This document shows, piece by piece, positions 18,537 through 36,589 of a stretch of DNA of 64,000 nucleotides. Where the stretch lies: contig CAZMXG010000007.1 of NCBI GenBank assembly GCA_964570175.1, forward strand, positions 2,109-66,108, written 5' to 3'. The stretch is from an uncultured Heliomicrobium sp. (lineage in GTDB: Bacteria > Acidobacteriota > Blastocatellia > RBC074). Both the position numbers and the translations under genes were made by a program. The notes beneath the pieces are model-generated. The model searched no databases. It was not told the origin of the DNA and saw only the letters and a list, made by a program, of their open reading frames with translations. Every line of letters begins with the position of its first letter. Within the stretch, counting starts at the first letter, position 1.

Positions 18537-19115
18537 ATGAATGACGCAGCATTGGCGGCGCTTCAACGGTCGCTAAGCGAATACCGTGAAGCAAAGCGGA
18601 AAATTCATCTCAAGCTGGCCGATCTGGAAATGGAATCGGCTTCATTGCGTTCCCAGCTTACAGAGCTTGACGCAATGATCGAGCGGAACGAGACGGCGTT
18701 GCTGCGCATGTTGCTTCCGGCCGACAAACAAATAGCATCAACCCGGACGCCGAACCTGCCCTTCGATTACAAAACCGCTGCTCACGCAAACTCGCACGAC
18801 TTCACAGATTTTCGTTCTTCCGTCGAATCCGATATCGAAGCCGAAGTTGCCAAACTGGAACAATCTGAAAAATCCAGTAACGTTCGTTTCACAGACTTCC
18901 GCATTCCGCAGGCAGCCACAATTGTTTTGCGCGAAGCTGATGGCCCATTGCACGTCAGCGAAATTTACCGCCGGATGGCTGCCGGAGGCTTTGAATTTCG
19001 CGGCCAGCACCAGTTGATTACGCTTGCCGTTTCTTTAAGCCGCAGCAAACGATTCCGCAAAGTCGCTCCCGGCACATTTGACCTAGTTCCTGAACAGTTG
19101 GCCGGAGCCGCTTGA
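18537..19115 (+). CDS. Coiled-coil protein with C-terminal HARE-HTH-like winged-helix domain
   Basis: N-terminal heptad-rich helix (LSEYREAKRKIHLKLADLEMESASLRSQLTELDAMIE). C-terminal IPQAATIVLREADGPLHVSEIYRRM...GTFDL resembles the HARE-HTH fold. Confidence 0.4.
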   Translation: MNDAALAALQRSLSEYREAKRKIHLKLADLEMESASLRSQLTELDAMIERNETALLRMLLPADKQIASTRTPNLPFDYKTAAHANSHDFTDFRSSVESDIEAEVAKLEQSEKSSNVRFTDFRIPQAATIVLREADGPLHVSEIYRRMAAGGFEFRGQHQLITLAVSLSRSKRFRKVAPGTFDLVPEQLAGAA

Positions 19116-19180: not shown

Positions 19181-19792
19181 ATGGCTGACACCACAACCCG
19201 CAATTTAAATCCCGCAATTCGCAATCACGAGATTGAAGTCAAACTGCGTCTGGACAATGTTGATGCGCTGACAAAAGCAGGGTTCATTTTGGAAATCCAA
19301 ATGCCTCGCCATTTTGAAGACAACTGGCTGCTGGATACTGAAAAAAAGCTGTTGGGCGAAAAGCTGGCGGTCTTGCGCGTCCGGCAAACAGGCGAGAGCG
19401 GCGTATTAACACTTAAAGAAAAAGCTGCATCTGATGCACCGGCTTCCCAATTCAAACAACGGCTTGAAATCGAAACCACACTGGACGAGCCGGACAATGC
19501 GTTGCTGATTTTTGAGCGGCTCGGATTCCAGCCCTGGTTCCGGTATCAGAAATACCGCACTGTTTACCAAGCCACGCTTCCCAGCGGCGCTCGACTTCAC
19601 GTCATGGCAGACGAAACGCCCATCGGAAATTTTATCGAACTTGAAGGCGAGGAAGCAGCGATTGCAGAAGGAGTGAAGCTGCTTGGCATCAACCCCGCAG
19701 ATTACGTGCTGGAAAGCTATCTTGCGCTGCAAGCAGCAAACTGTGCGCAACAAGGAAAACCATTTGGAGACATGATATTTTTAGGTGAGTGA
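19181..19792 (+). CDS. CYTH domain protein (triphosphate tunnel metalloenzyme; class IV adenylate cyclase / triphosphatase family)
   Basis: EIEVKLRL at the N-terminus (ExExK motif), plus later acidic strands ([18 protein letters not shown]). 203 aa. Confidence 0.6.
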
Positions 19793-19829
19793 AGCCTGTT
19801 CCCTGTCACCCATCACCTATCACCTGAAT

Positions 19830-20816
19830 ATGAAAGCAATGATTCTGGCCGCGGGTTTCGGTACCCGATTGTGGCCACTGACAATAGGACGAACCAAACC
19901 GGCGATCCCATTTTTGAATCGGCCGCTGATCGGGTTCACGATTGATTACCTGCGCCGGTACGGATTTGAAGACATCATCATCAATTTGCATCACGAACCA
20001 GATTCTGTTCGACGCCAAATTGGCGATGGGTCGCAGTTTGGCGTGCGAATTCATTATTCGGTCGAAGAGCCGGAAATTCTGGGAACCTCCGGCGCGCTGG
20101 ATAATGTCCGCGATCAACTGAACAAGGAAACCTTCGTCGTTATCAACGGCAAGATTATTACAGACATTGATTTGACGGCGGCGCTTGAAACCCATCGGCA
20201 AAAAAATGCACTGGCAACGCTGGTTTTAAAACCTAACCCAAAATGCGAACGTTTCAGCGAAGTCAAAATCACCGAAGACGGCCGTATCCTGGAATTCGCA
20301 GGCTTCCCCAACTCCCAAATTCCGACTCCCAATCCTCCATTGATGTTTACAGGCATTCACCTGATGGAGCCGGAGATTTTTGAGTACATCCCGCGTCGCA
20401 TATTTTCCGATTCCGTCAGAGACGTTTATCCAAGAGCAATGGCTGACGGAAAAGTGATTGCCGCGCATATTGCACGCTCAGACGGTTCCTGGTTTGAATT
20501 GAGCACCTTGCAGCGCTATCTGGAAATCAGCCTGGAATTTCTTGCACGCGAAGGCCGCGATGTTGTGATGGATGAAGGTTGCCAGATTGCCGGCTCAGCA
20601 GAAATCGCGCGGTCAGTGTTATGGAAACGCGTTCGAGTAGAAAGCGGTGCCCGCTTAACCAACTGCGTGGTTGGTGATGATGTGACGATTCCCGCCGGAG
20701 CGGAATTTGACCACGCAGTCATTGTTCGCGCTGATTCTGCTGGTGAAGCCGACCGTCCTGAAAAGGCCTTGCCAGCCGAGGTTGTGGGCGAGAATCTTGT
20801 CGTGAAAATCGGCTGA
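19830..20816 (+). CDS. Sugar-1-phosphate nucleotidyltransferase, MurU-like N-terminus with C-terminal left-handed beta-helix
   Basis: [31 protein letters not shown]-transferase signature. C-terminal hexapeptide-like region. Start moved to the ATG at 19830 to avoid overlap with the CYTH gene. Confidence 0.6.
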
Positions 20817-20948
20817 TGCTACCATCCGCCATCGTTTCTGCTGGTTGTAAAGCTGGCGTTGCGGGCGTTCACCAAATTTGAATTTGTTTTTGCTGCGCCT
20901 ACCCCTTAACTAAAACAATCTGCCCGCCATCAGAACTGACCAAAACTT

Positions 20949-22055
20949 ATGACTGCTACCGAAACCAACAATATATCTGCGCCTGAAATGCTGCCGGGCG
21001 AAATGGCAAAAACAACCGGAGGCCTGAGCGAAAAGCGCGTGGTCATTTTTGCAGCGCGTCATTTCGGCTTGCCCGTTAACGACGTTCTGTTTCAACCATT
21101 AACACCGGACGCTTCGACTAGAAAGTATTACCGGATTGCCGCTACCACCCGCCCACAGGAAACGCTGATTGTCAGTCTGTATCCATCACCTTTTAACCCG
21201 CACGACAATACTTTTCTGGATGTCACCAGACTGTTTGAACAGGCCAACTTGCCCGCTCCCCAAATTATTGACGTTGCCGGAACTGAAGGCATCATTTTGC
21301 AGGAAGACCTGGGTGATGTCAGTCTGGCACAATGGCTGAATGAAGCCGCAGAGCGCGGCGACGTTGCGGGCGCTGAAAAGATGCTGCGCCGCTCAATTGA
21401 ACTGATTGCGCGAATCCAGGGTGCAACAATGCTCGCTTACACCATGAATTCCGTCGCCAGTCATTTGGCTTTTGACGAAGACAAACTGCTGTGGGAGCTA
21501 AATTATTTTTTCGATCATTTTTTCGGCAGCTATCGGCAGCATTCATTTGCCGACGAACAAGCCGAAGCGATCAAAAGTGATTTGCAGGCCATCGCGGCAG
21601 AACTTGGCTCCCGCCCTCGTGCGTTGACGCATCGCGACTACCACGCGATGAACCTTATGGTAGACGCCAACGGTGAGTTGCGGATCATTGACCACCAGGA
21701 TGCGAGAATGGGTCCAGCGACGTATGATCTGGTTCCGCTGTTGGTCGAGCGCCGCTTGCAGCCAGTGAAAGAAGACTGGGTTTTGGAGCGTCAAGACTTA
21801 TTCCTGAGCTTGCGTGAAAAGATGGGCTTGCCGAAAATCGAAACTGAAGATTTTCGATATGAATTTAACCTGATGACCATTCAGCGGCAATTGAAAGCAA
21901 TGGGCACATTTTCGTATCAAACTGCCGTCGTCGGTCGCGGTGTTGTTTATGAACAGTACATTGTTCCAGCAGCGACGACGGTGCTGCGAGCAATGGGCAA
22001 AGCAGGAATTAAGAAATACCCTGCGCTCAGAAATGCCCTGGAAAGCATGATCTGA
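20949..22055 (+). CDS. Aminoglycoside-phosphotransferase-fold sugar kinase, AmgK-like (anomeric MurNAc/GlcNAc kinase family)
   Basis: [38 protein letters not shown] carries the APH-fold catalytic loop and DxQDA motif as in AmgK. Confidence 0.6.
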
Positions 22056-22068
22056 AAATTGCAATTCA

Positions 22069-22611
22069 ATGAATCCACAAGCGGTCAAAATCAGTAAATT
22101 TCTCAGTCTCGTGTTGCGCCACGAGCCAGAAAGAATCGGCATAGCGCTCGATGCGGCTGGCTGGACTTCAGTGAATGAATTGTTGGCGGCTTGCCGCGCG
22201 CACGGAAATTCAATCTCGCTGGAACAACTTCAAGAGGTTGTTGCCGATAATGACAAGAAACGGTTTTCGTTTAGCGAGGACGGCAGTTTGATTCGTGCCA
22301 GTCAAGGGCATTCGGTCGAAGTCGAACTAGGTTACGAAACAGCAATACCGCCTGCCAAACTTTTTCATGGCACAGCAGAACGGTTTTTGGCATCAATCAA
22401 AGAACAAGGCTTACTCAAAAGACAGCGTCATCACGTGCATTTGTCCGCCGACATCGAAACGGCAACCAACGTCGGTCAGCGGCACGGCAAGCCAGCCGTT
22501 CTTCAGGTAGAATCTGAAAAAATGCAGCAAGACGGTTTTATCTTTTATCTTTCAACAAATGGAGTCTGGTTGACGGAACATGTGCCTGTTCCTTACCTGG
22601 TGTTTTTATGA
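22069..22611 (+). CDS. kptA: RNA 2'-phosphotransferase (Tpt1/KptA family)
   Basis: [26 protein letters not shown] and [16 protein letters not shown] are conserved KptA motifs. 180 aa. Stop overlaps asnS by 4 bp. Confidence 0.8.
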
Positions 22612-23921
22612 AGCAAACATATATCTCTGACATTTCAAAACATCTCGGCGAAGAGATCACGATCAAAGGCTGGCTGTACAACAAACGTTCCAGCGGAAAG
22701 CTGGGCTTTCTGGAAGTGCGCGACGGTTCCGGCATTATTCAAGGCGTCGTGTCCAAAAAAGACGTCAGCGAGCAAACCTGGGAAAGCACGGAAAAGGTGA
22801 CGCAGGAATCTTCAATCATAGTCACCGGCGTCCCGCGCGAGCATCCGAAAAAGCCGGGCGTGTATGAAATGGACCTGAAGACAGTTGAGATCGTCAACCT
22901 GACCGAAGAGTATCCAATCACGCCGAAAGAACACGGCGTCGAATTTTTGATGGATCATCGCCATTTGTGGCTGCGGTCGCGCAGACAGCACGCCATCCTG
23001 AAAGTTCGCCACACGATCATCAAATCCGTTCGCGACTTTTTTGACAACAACGGCTTCACGCTTTGCGACACGCCAATTTTCACGCCTGCGGCCTGCGAAG
23101 GCACTTCGACGTTGTTTGAAGTTGATTACTTCGATGACGAAAAAGCGTATCTGTCGCAATCCGGCCAGCTTTACAACGAAGCGACTGCGGCTGCGTTTGG
23201 CAAAGTCTATTGTTTCGGGCCCACCTTCCGCGCCGAAAAATCAAAAACCCGTCGTCATCTGACCGAATTCTGGATGGTTGAACCGGAAGTTGCCTATGCC
23301 AAGCTGGACGACGTGATGGAACTGGCGGAAAACTTCATCAGCTATATTGTCAGCCGTGTGCTGGAAACAAGGCAGGAAGAGTTGAAGGTGCTGGAACGCG
23401 ACATTTCAAAGCTGGAAGCCATCGTGCCGCCCTTCCCTCGCCTGCAATACGACGATGCGGCAAAAATGCTCCAACAGGCGCACGCCGAAGGAAAACTGGA
23501 AAACCGGTTTGAATGGGGCGGCGATCTTGGCGCGCCGGATGAAACCTATATTTCTTCGCAATACGACAAACCCGTGATGGTGCATCGTTACCCGGCAGAA
23601 GTGAAGGCCTTTTACATGGAACCTGACCCACAACGTGCTGACCTGGCTTTGTGCGTGGACGTGCTGGCGCCGGAAGGGTACGGCGAAGTCATCGGTGGTG
23701 GCGAACGTATGTCTTCACACGAATTGCTGCTGCAAAGAATTCATGAACACAAACTGCCGCCAGAAGCCTTCGACTGGTATCTGGATTTGCGAAAGTACGG
23801 CAGCGTTCCGCACGGCGGGTTCGGCATGGGAATCGAACGGTGTGTGACATGGCTCTGCGGCATTGAGCATGTGCGCGAAACCATTCCCTTCCCGCGAATG
23901 TTGTATCGGTTGAAACCATAA
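22608..23921 (+). CDS. asnS: Asparagine--tRNA ligase (class II aaRS)
   Basis: N-terminal OB anticodon-binding domain. Motif 2 [21 protein letters not shown] and motif 3 [11 protein letters not shown]. 437 aa, AsnRS-type. Confidence 0.85.
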
Positions 23922-24045
23922 AGTTTTGCCACAAAGATTTAAGCGCTGCCTTCAGGCGAATGGATTGACCCACAGAGTGTGCCTGAAGGCAGGCGTAAAC
24001 CGTATTCTTGCTCCCCTTGATCTTCCCCCAGAGGATCATTGCCCC

Positions 24046-24807
24046 ATGGCTGTAAAAAAAGAAGACTCACTATTGCTGGGTTCGCAGCAAGTTTCAAACA
24101 ACGAATCACCGGCGAATCCGGTAAGTCCCACAAAGAAAGCTGTGATCATTGATACCTGGCTCAGCCAGTTTGAGCAGCGTATCGCGCGGGATTTCCAGCG
24201 GCGCACGGGGCTGGATTACAAAACAACCATTGCCCAAATCATTGAAGCCGCTGAGCCGTTTCCCGGCATGCGCGTGCTGGATGCACCGACCGGAACGGGA
24301 ATTCTGGCCCGGCAGTTTGTGGGCAAAATTGGCCAGGATGGAAAGATTATCGGCGTTGATGAAACGCACGAAAAAGTCGAAGAAGCACGACTAGCTGCGC
24401 AATCAGCGAAAGCAAGCTCGAAAACTGAATGGCGCATGATGCCGCTTTCTCATCTCAAGTTTGATAACAACAGTTTTGATCTGGTCACGTCCGGAATGGC
24501 GTTTCATCGTTTGGACGGTGCGCGCTATTTGAAAGAGATTCATAGAGTCCTGGTTCCGGGTGGGCGACTGTTGATTGCGGATGAACTGGCGCCGAAAATC
24601 ACTCCTCACTCTTTGCTGCAATCGGTCAGGCGAAACTATTACCGTTATATTGCGCGGGATAACGCGGAAGCTGATGCGCATTTTCCTTCCAGCGAAGAAA
24701 TGACGCGAATGATGCATGAAGCTGGTTTCAGTCAGATTGTGTTTCGCGCTTTGCGCCAGCGCAGCAAATATGATCGCGTCTTCACATTGGTCAAAGCTGT
24801 AAAGTGA
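24046..24807 (+). CDS. Class I SAM-dependent methyltransferase (Methyltransf_11-like)
   Basis: VLDAPTGTGILARQFV is SAM-binding motif I, with VPGGRLLIAD downstream. ATG at 24046 preferred over the upstream ORF extension. Confidence 0.65.
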   Translation: MAVKKEDSLLLGSQQVSNNESPANPVSPTKKAVIIDTWLSQFEQRIARDFQRRTGLDYKTTIAQIIEAAEPFPGMRVLDAPTGTGILARQFVGKIGQDGKIIGVDETHEKVEEARLAAQSAKASSKTEWRMMPLSHLKFDNNSFDLVTSGMAFHRLDGARYLKEIHRVLVPGGRLLIADELAPKITPHSLLQSVRRNYYRYIARDNAEADAHFPSSEEMTRMMHEAGFSQIVFRALRQRSKYDRVFTLVKAVK

Positions 24808-25850: not shown

Positions 25851-26960
25851 TTGGAAAACAAGCTTAGGGTTGGAGTCATTTTCGGAGGGCGTTCGGGCGA
25901 ACACGAAGTTTCGTTGCGCTCAGCGGAATCCATCATCAACGCGCTGGACCGCGAAAAATACGAAGTTGTGCCGATTGCCATCACCAAAGCGGGCAAGTGG
26001 CTGGCTTCCAGCGAAGCAACAAACTTACTGCCCAGCGCGGTGATGACAAGCGCCGACCAGCACGTGGCCATCTTTGGTGATCCGACTGAAAAAGGCTTGG
26101 CGCGCTTCGATGGCCAAAACGAAACTGGCAAGCGCGATACACTGGACGTGATCTTTCCTGTGCTGCATGGAACGTATGGCGAAGACGGCACAATTCAGGG
26201 TTTGTTGGAAATGGCCGATGTGCCGTATGTCGGTTGCGGCGTTCTGGGCTCAGCCGCCGGAATGGACAAAGTGGTCATGAAGCGGCTGTTTCGCGAAGCC
26301 GGGTTGCCCATCGTCGAATTCGTTCACTTTCTGCGTTCACAATGGGAAGCCGATCCTCTATTGGTTGAATTGCGCGTGGCTGAAGAAATCGGATTTCCCT
26401 GCTTCGTCAAACCCGCCAACCTGGGTTCTTCGGTCGGAATTTCTAAAGCGACGGATGCCAAAAGCTTGAATGCAGCAATTGCCCTTGCCGCAAAATATGA
26501 CCGCAAAATTGTCGTTGAACGCGGCGTGGATGCGCGCGAAATTGAAGTTAGTGTTCTGGGTAACGATCAGCCACAAGCCAGCCTGCCCGGAGAAATCGTG
26601 CCGCAATCCGCCGATTTTTACGATTACCAGGCGAAATACATCAGCGCCGATGGTGCGCGATTGGAAATTCCCGCGAACCTGAGCGAAGCGCAAACAGCCG
26701 AAATTCAGCAATTGGCGGTTCGGGCATTCCAGGCGATTGACGGTTCAGGACTAGGCCGCGTAGATTTTTTCCTCGAAAAAGAAACCGGCAAGTTGCTGTT
26801 GAATGAAATTAACACCATGCCCGGTTTCACTTCGATCAGCATGTACCCAAAACTGTGGGAAGCCAGCGGACTTAATTATGGCCAGTTGATTGACCGGTTG
26901 ATTGAACTCGCCTTTGAACGTCACCGCGAAAAATCACGCAATGTGACCAGCTTCGGCTGA
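25851..26960 (+). CDS. ddl: D-alanine--D-alanine ligase
   Basis: [20 protein letters not shown]-terminus. ATP-grasp motifs ([24 protein letters not shown]). 369 aa. Confidence 0.85.
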
Positions 26961-27036: not shown

Positions 27037-29118
27037 CTAGTTGCTGGGTTTGATCGGGCGTGGTGGTGGCGCTTCGCGCGAAGGTGGCGAAGATGGTTTG
27101 TCCGGCGCACGTTCGCTTCTGGATGGAGCCGATTCACGCGACGGCGGCGGCGACGAAGGCCGTTCCGGCGCGCGTTCGCTTCTGGACGGAGCCGATTCTC
27201 GCGAAGGCGGCGGCGATGAAGGCCGTTCAACCGGACGCGATGGTGGCGGATCGTACCGTCGCGGAGCTTCACTGCGCGAAGGCGGTTCGCTTTGCCGAGG
27301 CGTTTCGATGCGTGACGGACGATCCGCATCGCGGTTCACTTCGCGGTTTGGTGTCGAACGCGGCGTATCAACAGAATCGCGTGACGGATTGCTGCGCTCG
27401 CTTTCCGGCAAACTGCGCGTAGGAGCCGGAATACGGTCAACAGTTCTGTATTCGCTTTCACGCGGTTGACGGTCAGGGCGAACGATCTGCCCATCCTGAA
27501 TCCGGCTTGGCGATGCAGAATTACCGTCTGCGTTGCGAATCGGAGCGCTTCGATCCGGCGACACAGTCCCCCGACCATCACGAGATGGAAGCCCGCCGAC
27601 TTCTGCTCTGCCCGGAACACCCGTGCGATCCAATCCCGGCACCGGGCGGCGTTCAATCACAGGAGCTTCCAGCCGACGAGCAATTTCAGTTCGTTCGACT
27701 TTCAGTTCGCGCGTCGGCGCAGCCTGCACAGGTTTGAACTCTTCGCCGCGCAACATAGTCGGCGTAGAGGGATCTGCTGGCTGACCACCTCCGCGAGGCG
27801 GAGCAGGCGGCAAAATAATTTCATTTGGCGCTTTGATGTCATTTTGCGTGACGATCACTCGCCCGTTATCGAACTTGCGGCCATCCATGACGCTGACTCC
27901 GCCTGGAGCATTGTAATTATCCAGCGAACGCGCATTGATGATGGTCGTGTTGTTGACGATTGTGGTGGAACCTCGGCCGCCGTAATACCTGTCGCGCGGG
28001 CCCAATGGACACCAGCCGTACCAACCATATCGCCCGTCGCGATACCCGTCACGATAGCCCTGGTTGTAACCGCTGCCCCAGCCAAAAAACGCGACTTGAT
28101 GCGGTGCCCAGCCCCAGCCCACTGAAACGGTCGGCACCCAGCACCAACGGCTGCGATACCAGGCCCAGCGCCCGTAATGATAGGGAACCCATCCCCAAGG
28201 TTCGTACGAAACCCAGGTCCAGCCCCAGCCGGAATAGTGCCGCCAGTAACCGGCTCGGTAAGGTGCCCAGCCAACGGCTACGCTACGAGGCGACCAGACC
28301 CAACCGTAATCAGGGGATTCATACCATTCACCGTAAGCGTCCAGATCATAAACGCCAGGAACGGCCACAGGAATGTAACGCGCACTGCGGGAATTTTCGG
28401 CCCGCGAAGACAGATCATCATCGCGGCGGTCATTCCAACGATCCCAATCGTCTTTGTCATCCAGCCGTGCAATCTGGAAGTAATTGGCATCTCGCCCATC
28501 AACAACAATACGGCGGCCTTGTTTAACCGTCACTGCGCCAATATCACGGTTGTAAACTTCAGCCTGTCCGCGCCGGACGATCACTTCGGTGGTTCCGTCA
28601 TCCTGCACATTGATGCGGTAGCTGCCTTCTTTCAAAAACGTGACGGCGACAATCGGCGTATCGACTTCAAAATAGACCGGATCGTTTTTTCCCAGATCGT
28701 TCGCGTCAACAACACTGAATTGACGCCGATCCAAGCTGTCTACGCGAAACGTCGCATTTCCGACTGGCAAGGCAAATTGAATTGTTCCGTTGTTGAATTG
28801 TGAAAACCGCAGATTGGAATTGCGGTCAATGCGGATCAGATTGCGTCCGCTAATTTGAATTTCAGCTCGACCGCCTGGGCCGCTATAAATCTGGTCACGT
28901 TCATTTAGTGGCAGATTCAAAGAAGCGTCATACCAGTTTTGGCCATCGCCGGTGCGCTGATAACTGACTTCACCTTCAATCAAGCTGATGCGGGCAACAC
29001 GTACAGCCTGGTCTTGCGCGACAACCAGCGTGAACAGGGAGGTCAGGAAACCGATCAAAAGTGCCGCACGCATCAGGCGGCGGCTTGCAAGCAATTCTGA
29101 AGCAGTGGGAAAGAGCAT
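27037..29118 (-). CDS. Secreted FecR-domain-like protein with Trp/Tyr/Gly-rich central region and Pro/Ser-rich repetitive C-terminal tail
   Basis: Signal or anchor helix. N-terminal [13 protein letters not shown]...[19 protein letters not shown] is FecR-like. Central segment dense in W/Y/G ([50 protein letters not shown]). About 250-aa low-complexity P/S/R/E tail ending in two 21-aa repeats. Confidence 0.5.
27100..27230. repeat. Coding tandem repeat, 63-bp unit x2, encoding [18 protein letters not shown](E/D)(R/K)P
   Basis: Near-identical 63-nt units begin at about 27102 and 27165 on the + strand, inside the 3' end of the 27037..29118 gene. Confidence 0.7.
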
Positions 29119-34275: not shown

Positions 34276-34354
34276 TCTTGAAAACGGACTCAAACGATTC
34301 TCAAATCGTTCTCAAAGGGGATTTTCAAAACGACTTCAAACGATTTTCAAACTG
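34276..34354. promoter_or_regulatory. Array of direct repeats (TCAAACGATT[C/T]TCAAA / TTTTCAAAACGA-type half-sites) in the divergent intergenic region
   Basis: Sequence GAAAACGGACTCAAACGATTCTCAAATCGTTCTCAAAGGGGATTTTCAAAACGACTTCAAACGATTTTCAAACTG lies immediately upstream of the winged-helix regulator gene. Confidence 0.35.
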
Positions 34355-34357
34355 CTT

Positions 34358-36589
34358 ATGTCTTTGTCTGGCAAACACTTTTACGATTTTGACCGGTTTC
34401 GTATGGATGCGAACGAGCGCGTGCTGTTGGCCGACGGCGAGATCGTGACGCTGACGCAAAAAGCATTTGACGTGTTGATGGTTTTGGTGGAACGGCGCGG
34501 CCAGATTGTCAGCAAGGACGAACTAATGGAGTTAGTTTGGCCAGACACGTTTGTCGAAGAGGGGAATCTTGCCCAGAACATTTACACCCTTAGAAAAGTT
34601 CTGGGACAGACCAGCGACGGGCAGGATTTCATTAAAACGATTCCCAAACGAGGGTACAGGTTTGCTTTGGACGTCAGCGAACACCGTGATGTTCAGCCAG
34701 AGCTGACCTCTGAAAAGCCAACCGTTTTGAACTCGCCCTCAAAACCGCTGACAACAAATTCCGTAGTGGTTCAGTTTCCCACGGAACATCGCGGAATAGT
34801 TCATCAACCCACGCAGGAAAATTGGACCCAATCGCTAAGCCGTCACAAAATGTTGGTCGTGACGCTGGCTGTGCTTTTTGTCGGGTCGGTCGGCAGTTTG
34901 ATTTGGCTGGGAAACTCTTTTGGATGGAATCTGTTTTCGTCGAATTCCAGCACCAAACTGAATATCAGCAATTTGACGACGACTGGAAACGTCGCGTGTT
35001 CGGCGGTTTCTCCGGATGGAAAGTTTGTCGCTTATGCGCTGACCGAAACCGCTCAGCGAAGCAGTTTGTGGTTAATGCAATTGGCGACGATGAATGTTCA
35101 ACAGGTGATCGCTCCGGCCGAAATCCAATACCACGCGCTGACGTTTTCGCGCGATGGACAGTTCATTCATTACGTCGCCCGTGAAAATAATTCAACTCGC
35201 ACGCTGTTTCGAGTTTCGGTGCTTGGCGGCGCTTCAAAAAAATTGAGTGAAAATGTCCTGACCGCCATTTCGTTTTCTCCTGACGGCGAACGGCTCGCTT
35301 TCCGGCGATCATTTGACGAACGGCGCGAGGCTGTTCTTTTTGTCGCTAATGCTGACGGCAGCAATGAAAAACAGCTTGCTGCCGTCAAATATCCGAATTC
35401 GTTTGGCGATCCTGCCTGGTCGCCCGACGGAAACGTGATTGCCTGTGCCGCAGGCTATTCGGAAGGAGGCGCGAATATGGAAGTTGTCGCCGTTCGCGCA
35501 GATGACGGAGCGATCAAGCCGGCTTCGGCTCAAAGATTCCGCTGGATTGGCCAGCTTGCGTGGCTGCCGGATTCCAGCGGTTTGATGATGGTCGCCAGCC
35601 GCGATCCGGCAGAGCTTCGGCAGGTTTGGCGGCTGGATTATGCAACCGGCGAAACGCGCCGTGTGACCAATGACAACAACCATTACAACCGCTTGAGCCT
35701 TTCCGCTGACGGCAAGACGTTGGTGGTTTCGCAGCTCAAGCAGGTTACCAACATGTGGATGATCCCGCGTGAAGACGCGCAGCGTGCGAAGCAAATCACC
35801 TTCGGCGCGGGAGGCTACAGAGGCAGGCTTTCGTGGACGCCAGATGACAGAATTGTGTATGACTCCGAAGCGGCTAACGCCGCAACGATTTCCGTGATGA
35901 ATGCCGATGGCAGCCATCAGAAACAATTGCTTGGCGAACAACCCAATAAATCTTACGCTGGGCGCTCGTATGTTTCGCCAGATGGACGCTATGTTTTGTT
36001 CGCCTCCGATGTCACTGGAACACGCCACATCTGGCGCATGAACATAGATGGCAGCAATCCAGTTCAACTGACCAATGGTGATGGCGAAGACACGCCGCAT
36101 TGTTCCCAGGATTGCCGATGGGTGGTTTACACAAAACTCGAACGCAAGGGAGCAGATCGTCCCACAATTTGGCGTGTTTCCATTGATGGAGGAACGCCAT
36201 CGCAATTGACCGAAGATTTTACGATGTATCCGGCGATTTCGCCGGATGGAAAGATGATGGCTTGCGTGCGCTCAGCGCCGAACGAACCCGGACGGCTTGC
36301 CATTTACTCAGTTGAAGGCGGTGTGCCAATCAAAATTTTCCCGCGCCCGATAGATGGCACGCCGCTGATTCGCTGGACGCCCGATGGGCGATTTTTGACC
36401 TATGACGAAAATCCAATCGGTCCCGCCAAATTGTGGCTTCAATCCGTGGAGGGCGGCGAACCGAAATTGCTGACCGAATTCGTTTCGGATCGCATTTTCG
36501 GATTCGACTGGTCGCCTGATGGAAACCGATTGGCTGTCGTACGCGGCCTGTGGTCGGCCAACCTTGTCTTGATCAAAGGCTTTCAGTAA
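34358..36589 (+). CDS. CadC/OmpR-type winged-helix DNA-binding domain - TM - TolB-like beta-propeller transcriptional regulator
   Basis: N-terminal trans_reg_C-like domain (LTQKAFDVLMVLVERRGQIVSKDELMELVWPDTFVEEGNLAQNIYTLRKVL). One TM (VVTLAVLFVGSVGSLIWL). About 500 aa of repeated SPDG/WSPDG propeller blades. Confidence 0.65.
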   Translation: MSLSGKHFYDFDRFRMDANERVLLADGEIVTLTQKAFDVLMVLVERRGQIVSKDELMELVWPDTFVEEGNLAQNIYTLRKVLGQTSDGQDFIKTIPKRGYRFALDVSEHRDVQPELTSEKPTVLNSPSKPLTTNSVVVQFPTEHRGIVHQPTQENWTQSLSRHKMLVVTLAVLFVGSVGSLIWLGNSFGWNLFSSNSSTKLNISNLTTTGNVACSAVSPDGKFVAYALTETAQRSSLWLMQLATMNVQQVIAPAEIQYHALTFSRDGQFIHYVARENNSTRTLFRVSVLGGASKKLSENVLTAISFSPDGERLAFRRSFDERREAVLFVANADGSNEKQLAAVKYPNSFGDPAWSPDGNVIACAAGYSEGGANMEVVAVRADDGAIKPASAQRFRWIGQLAWLPDSSGLMMVASRDPAELRQVWRLDYATGETRRVTNDNNHYNRLSLSADGKTLVVSQLKQVTNMWMIPREDAQRAKQITFGAGGYRGRLSWTPDDRIVYDSEAANAATISVMNADGSHQKQLLGEQPNKSYAGRSYVSPDGRYVLFASDVTGTRHIWRMNIDGSNPVQLTNGDGEDTPHCSQDCRWVVYTKLERKGADRPTIWRVSIDGGTPSQLTEDFTMYPAISPDGKMMACVRSAPNEPGRLAIYSVEGGVPIKIFPRPIDGTPLIRWTPDGRFLTYDENPIGPAKLWLQSVEGGEPKLLTEFVSDRIFGFDWSPDGNRLAVVRGLWSANLVLIKGFQ

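Follow-up and report, generated by a model that had tools for sequence, protein, structure and literature searches.

A conserved CYTH–nucleotidyltransferase–kinase gene unit in Acidobacteriota and its likeness to the AmgK/MurU sugar salvage pair

The AmgK/MurU salvage route bypasses MurA and MurB, and it is the basis of intrinsic fosfomycin resistance and of metabolic peptidoglycan labelling. To our knowledge, work on it has been confined almost entirely to Proteobacteria and Tannerella. Biochemically, the route is a shortcut of two steps, from a sugar to its 1-phosphate and from there to the nucleoside diphosphate (NDP) sugar (PMC13041923, PMC5371407). The P. putida and T. forsythia pairs have been put to the test in E. 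coli, by fosfomycin rescue in the presence of MurNAc or by the uptake of 2-alkyne-MurNAc into peptidoglycan (PMC5411481, PMC13041923). In Pseudomonas putida and Pseudomonas aeruginosa, Tannerella forsythia, Legionella and Caulobacter, it is represented by an APH-fold anomeric sugar kinase beside a sugar-1-phosphate nucleotidyltransferase (NTase). A similar pair, with the same kinase signature blocks, is encoded in the 64-kb stretch of acidobacterial DNA (class Blastocatellia) that is the subject of this work; we call this stretch the window and count all coordinates from its position 1. There, five genes follow one another on the plus strand, for a stand-alone CYTH protein, the NTase, the kinase, the RNA 2'-phosphotransferase KptA and asparagine--tRNA ligase (AsnRS, gene asnS). 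The first three form a conserved, tightly packed unit in several classes of Acidobacteriota. We think it fairly probable that the string consists of a three-gene operon, conserved in Acidobacteriota, together with its neighbours, and that a core of triphosphate tunnel metalloenzyme (TTM), long NTase and AmgK-family kinase, standing upstream of a housekeeping asnS gene, serves the salvage of a sugar to its NDP form.

How does this locus compare with what has been described? With respect to AmgK/MurU, the acidobacterial order is reversed, the NTase preceding the kinase, and the pair has conserved neighbours, a TTM gene on its upstream side and asnS on the downstream one. Moreover, the window NTase is about 100 residues longer, its tail is of the type found in GDP-mannose pyrophosphorylases (GMPPs), and it resembles MurU no more closely than it does ManC or UDP-glucose pyrophosphorylase (UGPase). 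Other enzymes resemble single members of the string. A long, non-GalU UGPase (8X7S) and the GMPPs (8YRE, 7X8J, 7WHR, 7D72; NF052502) share with the NTase an N-terminal NTP_transferase domain and a C-terminal left-handed beta-helix (LbH). The TTM enzymes SaTTM (Saci_0718; 7NS8/7NS9), NeuTTM/CthTTM and Escherichia coli YgiF resemble the CYTH protein in their closed beta-barrel tunnel, with an ExExK motif, paired arginines and a C-terminal ExE for two-metal hydrolysis of triphosphate; unlike them, the clade of the window CYTH is tightly linked to a sugar NTase/kinase pair, a context that PMC8233210 does not mention. Finally, LicA/LicC (choline kinase and CTP:phosphocholine cytidylyltransferase) also combine an APH-fold kinase with an enzyme of the NTP_transferase fold, and LicA (4R77) is among the fold matches of our kinase (E 4e-7). 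However, the match of the window NTase to LicC (1JYK) covers the first 55 residues only (E 4e-7), whereas sugar-1-phosphate NTases match over the full length, and the blocks of the kinase are of the AmgK type, not of the choline kinase type. Our literature search found no mention of AmgK together with Acidobacteria and no report of a CYTH–NTase gene neighbourhood.

How widely is the arrangement kept? An alignment of the kinase was scanned against one genome per species, and the best 80 loci were collected with flanks of up to 10 kb on each side; four look-ups were also centred on the CYTH protein (L089–L092; L numbers denote loci throughout). The comparison takes in 84 related loci. The survey loci were searched with profiles of all the window genes, and adjacency was counted where the upstream sequence sufficed. 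Classes such as Terriglobia and Holophagae fall outside the best 80 matches and outside the sample. The closest homologues of the kinase come from Blastocatellia/Acidobacteriota metagenome-assembled genomes (MAGs).

In nearly all acidobacterial loci sampled, the NTase gene is followed by the kinase gene: 27/27 in Acidobacteriota MAGs of unnamed class, 5/5 in Vicinamibacterales, 11/12 in Blastocatellia, 1/1 in Polarisedimenticolia and 16/17 in Pyrinomonadaceae/Chloracidobacterium. The CYTH gene lies directly upstream of the pair in 22/27, 5/5, 8/11 and 1/1 loci of the first four groups, and in 0/14 of the last. In the other phyla sampled, which include Nitrospirota, Nitrospinota, Bdellovibrionota, delta-proteobacterial MAGs and Spirochaetes, CYTH is directly upstream in no locus, and most loci show the canonical order, amgK then murU; L067 is an exception, with the NTase first, and five loci have no adjacent NTase (L057, L061, L063, L074 and one more Nitrospinaceae locus). 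Over all the loci in which the kinase was found, kinase and NTase genes are adjacent in 80 of 88. Their functional link is also supported, in the Rosetta-stone sense, by a natural fusion found in a representative search: protein P0164 (581 aa) joins an N-terminal NTP_transferase domain to a C-terminal AmgK-like APH domain with 38% identity to the window kinase. A preliminary description of this stretch had counted on a gene order kept in relatives and on a conserved linkage of both CYTH and KptA to the sugar pair. The neighbourhood analysis upholds the order of CYTH, NTase and kinase, and it upholds the linkage for CYTH in several acidobacterial classes; for KptA the linkage fails. Of the 10 Blastocatellia loci that could be assessed, four have this gene in its place, namely the window, L001, L004 and L008, and it is there in no locus of any other group.

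The three genes are also tightly packed. All four CYTH-centred look-ups gave the succession CYTH, NTase with LbH, APH kinase (4/4). Two of these loci (L090, L091) have a 4-nt overlap at both junctions; in the other two (L089, L092) CYTH and NTase are 3–5 nt apart, and NTase and kinase still overlap by 4 nt. Taken over 39 loci, the first NTase codon in the alignment follows the CYTH stop at a median distance of 14 nt. When the flanking open reading frames (ORFs) were clustered in an unbiased way, only CYTH, NTase, kinase and asnS proved common to different classes. In Blastocatellia, the unit is part of a one-strand synteny block made of TatD, YajQ, polyprenyl synthase, a 192-aa protein, CYTH, NTase, kinase, a variable slot, asnS, a methyltransferase, arginase and D-alanine--D-alanine ligase (ddl). 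Vicinamibacterales-like loci have other flanks, with Peptidase_M24, HtrA and Methyltransf_28 upstream and rimP-nusA-infB downstream.

Two side observations belong to this survey. Two MAGs labelled as other phyla, L058 (Woeseiaceae, Gammaproteobacteria) and L048 (Acidimicrobiia, Actinomycetota), carry the acidobacterial-type succession of CYTH, NTase and APH kinase, and L058 has asnS as well; their kinases nest among the acidobacterial ones, which suggests mis-binned contigs, horizontal transfer being less likely. The 192-aa protein has 14 orthologues in the loci, and its place immediately before the module is conserved in no groups but Blastocatellia and Pyrinomonadaceae; it combines a predicted coiled-coil N-terminus with a weak C-terminal HARE-HTH match, and it may bind DNA.

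What would such a unit do? By analogy with AmgK/MurU, the kinase would use ATP to phosphorylate a free sugar at C1, and the NTase would condense the resulting sugar-1-phosphate with a nucleoside triphosphate (NTP) to give the NDP-sugar. N-acetylmuramic acid or N-acetylglucosamine (MurNAc/GlcNAc) would be the most likely substrate, as in the known shortcut, by which these recycled sugars enter peptidoglycan synthesis. As for the TTM, it is predicted to hydrolyse a triphosphate, either inorganic triphosphate (PPPi) or an NTP, to pyrophosphate (PPi) and phosphate (Pi), and the close coupling of its gene to that of the NTase suggests that it takes part in the NTase/kinase route.

Judged by its sequence, the kinase belongs to the AmgK family. 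AmgK is its only strong NCBIfam match (NF045759, E 1.5e-25, 90 bits; the next family has E 9e-5). In addition, the blocks GDAS.R.Y.R, EDLGD, HRD[YF]H.RNLM, ID[FH]QDA..GP.YDL and QR.LK..G are all common to the window kinase and to the AmgKs of Neisseria, Legionella, Acinetobacter and Parabacteroides, that of Neisseria being a protein that passes the AmgK cutoff. The AmgK-like nature of the kinase, as first proposed, is therefore sustained, at an identity of 22–27% to the reference AmgKs. The HxDxxxxN loop and the metal-binding Asp of the APH/ePK-like fold are present, and 60 relatives all keep H228-R229-D230...N235 and D248/D251. Among solved structures, the uncharacterised 3CSV is closest in sequence (E 3e-14) and is also the top fold match of the AlphaFold2 (AF2) model (pLDDT 87.7; TM 0.65/0.74), followed by ethanolamine, choline, methylthioribose and aminoglycoside kinases. 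Among the loci examined, that of Parabacteroides distasonis (L087, NZ_OY725790.1, 2932–4362) encodes an AmgK-like kinase with an extra C-terminal region matching the RapZ C-terminus, upstream of a MurU-like NTase; its PGAP name, "RNase adapter RapZ", is probably misleading.

The NTase is a more ambiguous protein. It had been presented as MurU-like with an additional C-terminal beta-helix; both the G-x-G-T-R motif near its N-terminus and the helix (LbH, residues 259–315) are there, but MurU is not its best-scoring family. Reference MurUs are single-domain proteins of 218–245 aa, so the 328-aa window protein with its LbH departs from the minimal MurU architecture, and the tail aligns to the LbH of GMPPs. 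By sequence comparison, the NTase is equidistant from MurU, GMPPs and the long UGPase; three reference MurUs, by comparison, prefer the MurU model by 66–211 bits. For this reason the MurNAc/GlcNAc specificity is one that we infer, and our search of the accessible literature found no published specificity residues for MurU or AmgK. The tail is not peculiar to Acidobacteriota, since AmgK-like kinases of Spirochaetes and delta-proteobacterial MAGs also have long NTases with an LbH tail as partners.

As for the CYTH protein, its similarity to solved structures is marginal in sequence (best E 0.017), and its AF2 model is confident (pLDDT 90.1): the best superposition is with SaTTM with bound triphosphate (7NS9; TM 0.70/0.79, rmsd 2.6 Å), class IV cyclases being structurally nearly as close. 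The residues conserved in 35 orthologues are ExExK (E17/E19/K21), R66/R68, K79, K92, E96/E98, K124/R126, D144/E145 and E153/E155. Is it then a cyclase or a triphosphatase? The published determinants of class IV adenylate cyclases (CyaB) are HFxxxxExExK, a small residue in place of the first Arg of xxRxR and an Ala in place of the second Glu of ExE (PMC8233210). In the window protein, no HF precedes ExExK, VLRVR keeps both arginines and has no Trp, and ELE keeps both glutamates. The cyclase assignment was rejected on these three determinants, and the cyclase model TIGR00318 gives 35 bits against a cutoff of 58. A thiamine triphosphatase (ThTPase) is likewise ruled out by the published determinants. 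By these criteria, the CYTH protein is predicted to be a TTM-type triphosphohydrolase. Relatives of it (P0270–P0389) bear the automatic JGI label "adenylate cyclase class 2", which is probably wrong.

Several points weigh against the salvage explanation, and they are best considered together. First, the window kinase scores far below the AmgK equivalog cutoffs (90 vs 550 bits for NF045759 and 58.6 vs 500 bits for NF045698). In a calibration with kinases from amgK-murU-type loci, Neisseria reaches 574 bits and passes, while Legionella (263), Acinetobacter (230) and Parabacteroides (Tannerellaceae-type, 71) also fail; the AmgK cutoffs are thus too narrow to exclude membership, and the NCBIfam equivalog cutoffs were dropped as a membership criterion because they do not discriminate. 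Second, the deep nodes of the trees are weak. Neighbour-joining (NJ) gives a bootstrap of 20% for one acidobacterial kinase clade, and in the tree of the NTase N-domains GMPP and UGPase split from all kinase-partnered NTases with a bootstrap of 51%; deep NJ phylogeny with such values is unusable as evidence, so that the conclusions rest on gene architecture. Third, the NTase scores higher with the NCBIfam model ManC-Rv (151 bits, cutoff 440) than with MurU (NF045761; 137 bits, cutoff 250), both values being below cutoff, and its matches in the PDB are the long UGPase 8X7S (128 bits), GMPP (91 bits) and P. putida MurU (4Y7T, 88 bits). Fourth, AnmK, MupP, NagZ and AmpG are not among the conserved neighbours within the 20-kb loci, and the neighbours found are housekeeping and translation genes. 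Fifth, CYTH is not beside the pair in Pyrinomonadaceae/Chloracidobacterium, which means that the pair works without a neighbouring CYTH. Lastly, PPi is both a product and an inhibitor of TTM enzymes (PMC8233210), which is of no obvious help to the NTase, and a simple role in PPi removal is unlikely for this reason. Correspondingly, the idea that CYTH might draw the NTase reaction forward by cleaving PPi is weak: TTMs of the ExExK type cleave the beta-gamma bond and release PPi, and the plant TTMs that prefer PPi are devoid of the motif (PMC8233210).

Could the pair activate some other sugar? Glucose, mannose or another hexose or hexosamine could be channelled into exopolysaccharide, lipopolysaccharide (LPS) or glycoconjugates, with the NTase acting as a CugP/GMPP-like enzyme and not as a MurU. 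We regard this as possible but rather unlikely. It agrees with the ranking of the NTase matches given above and with the LbH, which is common to GMPP enzymes and not present in MurU; besides, a TIM barrel resembling sugar-phosphate epimerases/isomerases adjoins the kinase in one acidobacterial sub-clade. The match to the ManC family remains far below its cutoff, and the search results describe no pairing of the UGPase and GMPP enzymes with an APH kinase, unlike the window NTase, which lies beside an AmgK-family kinase. Against this reading, AmgKs are the only significant characterised relatives of that kinase. Across phyla, the same family of kinases has partners of both kinds, long NTases with LbH and short ones of the MurU type. 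For three long partners (L068, L076 and L067), the scores of the MurU and ManC models lie no more than 15 bits apart; for L066 the difference is 31 bits, and for the Pyrinomonadaceae NTase (L017) MurU is the preferred model. Hints toward peptidoglycan also come from ddl, which lies within the Blastocatellia synteny block and which, in another lineage (L067), abuts the pair: there, ddl (433 bits) lies 5 nt upstream of a long NTase whose ORF overlaps that of the kinase.

Another possibility is that nothing exists beyond the kinase/NTase pair, and that CYTH and asnS, as housekeeping genes with no relation to it, simply keep an adjacency inherited within Acidobacteriota. This, too, we regard as possible but rather unlikely. 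The loci of Pyrinomonadaceae/Chloracidobacterium and of all the other phyla sampled, where CYTH is not beside the pair, are what it would lead one to expect, as is the lack of CYTH fusions among the top 120 relatives; no biochemical rationale ties a PPi-producing triphosphatase to the pathway, and the junction with asnS is broken by varied inserts. Against it stands the fact that the CYTH–NTase adjacency persists across classes whose other flanks have all been replaced, with junctions that overlap or nearly do so, a pattern typical of selection for co-expression and not of neutral retention. One may go further and ask whether a salvage pathway of the AmgK/MurU type in Acidobacteriota has the TTM as a true third member, which might control the supply of NTP or PPPi to the NTase and the kinase or act on a triphosphorylated by-product. 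This remains a tentative proposal, and on present evidence a rather doubtful one. It concerns a group of proteins, the small CYTH/TTM enzymes, whose physiological role is still called elusive (PMC8233210).

The region downstream of the kinase behaves differently from the core. KptA itself is a full-length equivalog match (NF002014, 265 bits, cutoff 239), and look-ups centred on it returned two relatives of 69–71% identity that keep the order kinase, KptA, asnS. A third relative (69% identity; L094, 5001–5543) lies in an unrelated context, among PIN_12, HepT-like, Pol-beta NTase and DUF4365 genes. These surroundings resemble toxin-antitoxin or defence loci, a hint that KptA in these bacteria may serve conflict or stress systems. 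KptA is therefore a lineage-restricted accessory gene in a variable slot, outside the module, and its linkage to the sugar pair is not obligatory. Across Acidobacteriota, this slot between kinase and asnS is an insertion hotspot, with toxin-antitoxin-like genes among its contents and sometimes nothing at all. Elsewhere it holds DUF5678 with an aspartyl-protease-like ORF, a 254–274-aa protein without known family, a cohesin-domain protein, an N6/N4 DNA methylase with a 376-aa partner ORF (possibly a restriction-modification system) or, in a Vicinamibacterales-like sub-clade, an AP_endonuc_2 TIM barrel; some Pyrinomonadaceae loci have long ORFs of about 600 aa on the opposite strand.

Because the gap is an insertion hotspot, the junction between kinase and asnS is not tight. 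Even so, in most assessable loci of four acidobacterial groups (15/17, 3/4, 8/10 and 7/11) asnS is found no more than 2.6 kb from the kinase (0/1 in Polarisedimenticolia). The identity of the gene is clear: the window AsnRS scores 570 bits with NF003037 (cutoff 414), the best AspRS(ND) model reaching 352, just under its cutoff of 353, and the downstream gene of distant acidobacterial loci is a genuine asnS as well (498–568 bits, same cutoff). In L059 (9878–12223), a single ORF of 748–781 aa joins APH and AsnRS; this is probably an assembly frameshift in a long-read MAG and not a true fusion, and it cannot serve as Rosetta-stone evidence, since its junction reads as out-of-frame high-GC sequence without the conserved C-terminus of the kinase.

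A last alternative would make KptA and the kinase an eraser and a writer of RNA 2'-phosphate on tRNA, which would explain the linkage to asnS. There is a precedent: the kinase ArkI writes 2'-phosphouridine in tRNA, and KptA is proven to erase it (PMC9095486). In the window, moreover, only 13 nt separate the stop of the kinase from the start of KptA, which shares 4 nt with asnS. The reading was nevertheless rejected as highly improbable: ArkI (COG2112) has HGQ/DFE motifs, in contrast to the HRD and the AmgK block DHQDARMG of the window kinase, RNA kinases are found neither among the PDB sequence matches of the latter with E<=0.01 (3CSV, CDK5) nor among its 50 best PDB fold matches, which are small-molecule kinases, and across the loci the kinase is partnered with the NTase (with one fusion besides) while KptA occurs in a small minority.

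With the three-gene salvage operon as the preferred explanation, some details of the locus can be added. Gene calls in the window combined ORFs, Pfam and NCBIfam, and the features are collected in Table 1. The ORFs, domains and quoted motifs of the five genes were all confirmed at the positions first reported for them. The close junction behind the coupling proposed for KptA and asnS is likewise present, the two ORFs sharing the four nucleotides ATGA (22608–22611). The overlap proposed for CYTH and NTase exists only if the NTase starts at GTG 19785; homologous NTases begin with MKAMIL, which corresponds to ATG 19830 and leaves a gap of 37 nt in the window.

Is the string one transcription unit? 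All five genes are probably co-transcribed in this genome. Consensus scans for promoters and terminators along the string stayed at the background of shuffled sequences and are uninformative, and nothing convincing interrupts it. The spacer between NTase and kinase measures 130–230 nt in Blastocatellia and is absent elsewhere, the two genes overlapping in the other classes. Close relatives share conserved blocks within it, e.g., TTGCGGGCG...GCGCCTACCCC...TTGCCCGCCA, and it may be an internal promoter or a regulatory site. Its predicted folding is no better than that of shuffled sequences (z = 0.62), it has no Rfam match, and a scan of the whole window found no Rfam family and no tRNA; the idea of hidden RNA regulators was rejected on these grounds.

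Table 1. Features of the gene string and its surroundings in the window, with examples of the slot downstream of the kinase
Feature	Position	Strand	Evidence or remark
192-aa protein, weak HARE-HTH	18537..19115	+	Context, outside the core; Pfam E 0.001, below cutoff
CYTH/triphosphate tunnel metalloenzyme, stand-alone, 203 aa	19181..19792	+	Pfam CYTH E 6e-15; predicted TTM-type triphosphohydrolase
Sugar-1-phosphate nucleotidyltransferase (NTase), 328 aa from ATG 19830	19830..20816 (alternative GTG 19785)	+	Pfam NTP_transferase (PF00483) E 2e-36; Hexapep_GlmU/LbH_EIF2B
NTase–kinase spacer, 132 nt	20817..20948	+	Blastocatellia-specific
AmgK-family APH-fold small-molecule (anomeric sugar) kinase, 368 aa	20949..22055	+	Pfam APH E 9e-20; NCBIfam AmgK
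RNA 2'-phosphotransferase KptA/Tpt1, 180 aa	22069..22611	+	Pfam PTS_2-RNA E 2e-52; NCBIfam NF002014
Asparagine--tRNA ligase asnS, 437 aa	22608..23921	+	tRNA-synt_2 and anticodon OB domain; NCBIfam NF003037
D-alanine--D-alanine ligase (ddl)	25851..26960	+	NCBIfam Ddl 479 bits vs cutoff 262; 3.8 kb downstream
Slot between kinase and asnS, window	22056..22607
Slot between kinase and asnS, L002	9193..9986
Slot between kinase and asnS, L026	11033..13222
Slot between kinase and asnS, L019	11057..11671
Slot between kinase and asnS, L043	10942..11799

Three further observations concern other parts of the window. The methyltransferase ORF that follows asnS (23926–24807) probably has its start called too early at TTG 23926, as its homologues of 251–254 aa fit ATG 24046. 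At 27101–27228, a 63-nt unit occurs twice with 92% identity inside a 693-aa ORF of the minus strand (27037–29118), which corresponds to a FecR/DUF6600-like gene of L001; the result is a 21-aa in-frame duplication. Finally, a degenerate 22-nt repeat of about three copies (34281–34351) lies just upstream of a 743-aa ORF that starts at 34358, and it may be a regulatory repeat.

What do these genes mean for the biology of the group? Recognizing KptA as a variable insert removes a misleading lead on the function of this protein in bacteria. The tight operon found in several classes is a concrete, testable context for a small CYTH/TTM enzyme, and, if the TTM is truly the third component, a small bacterial CYTH enzyme would for the first time have a defined physiological setting, and a salvage variant that employs a long NTase would be defined with it. 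A distinct, conserved acidobacterial version of the pathway, with its reversed order, its long LbH-tailed NTase and its TTM partner, would extend AmgK/MurU salvage to a major soil phylum.

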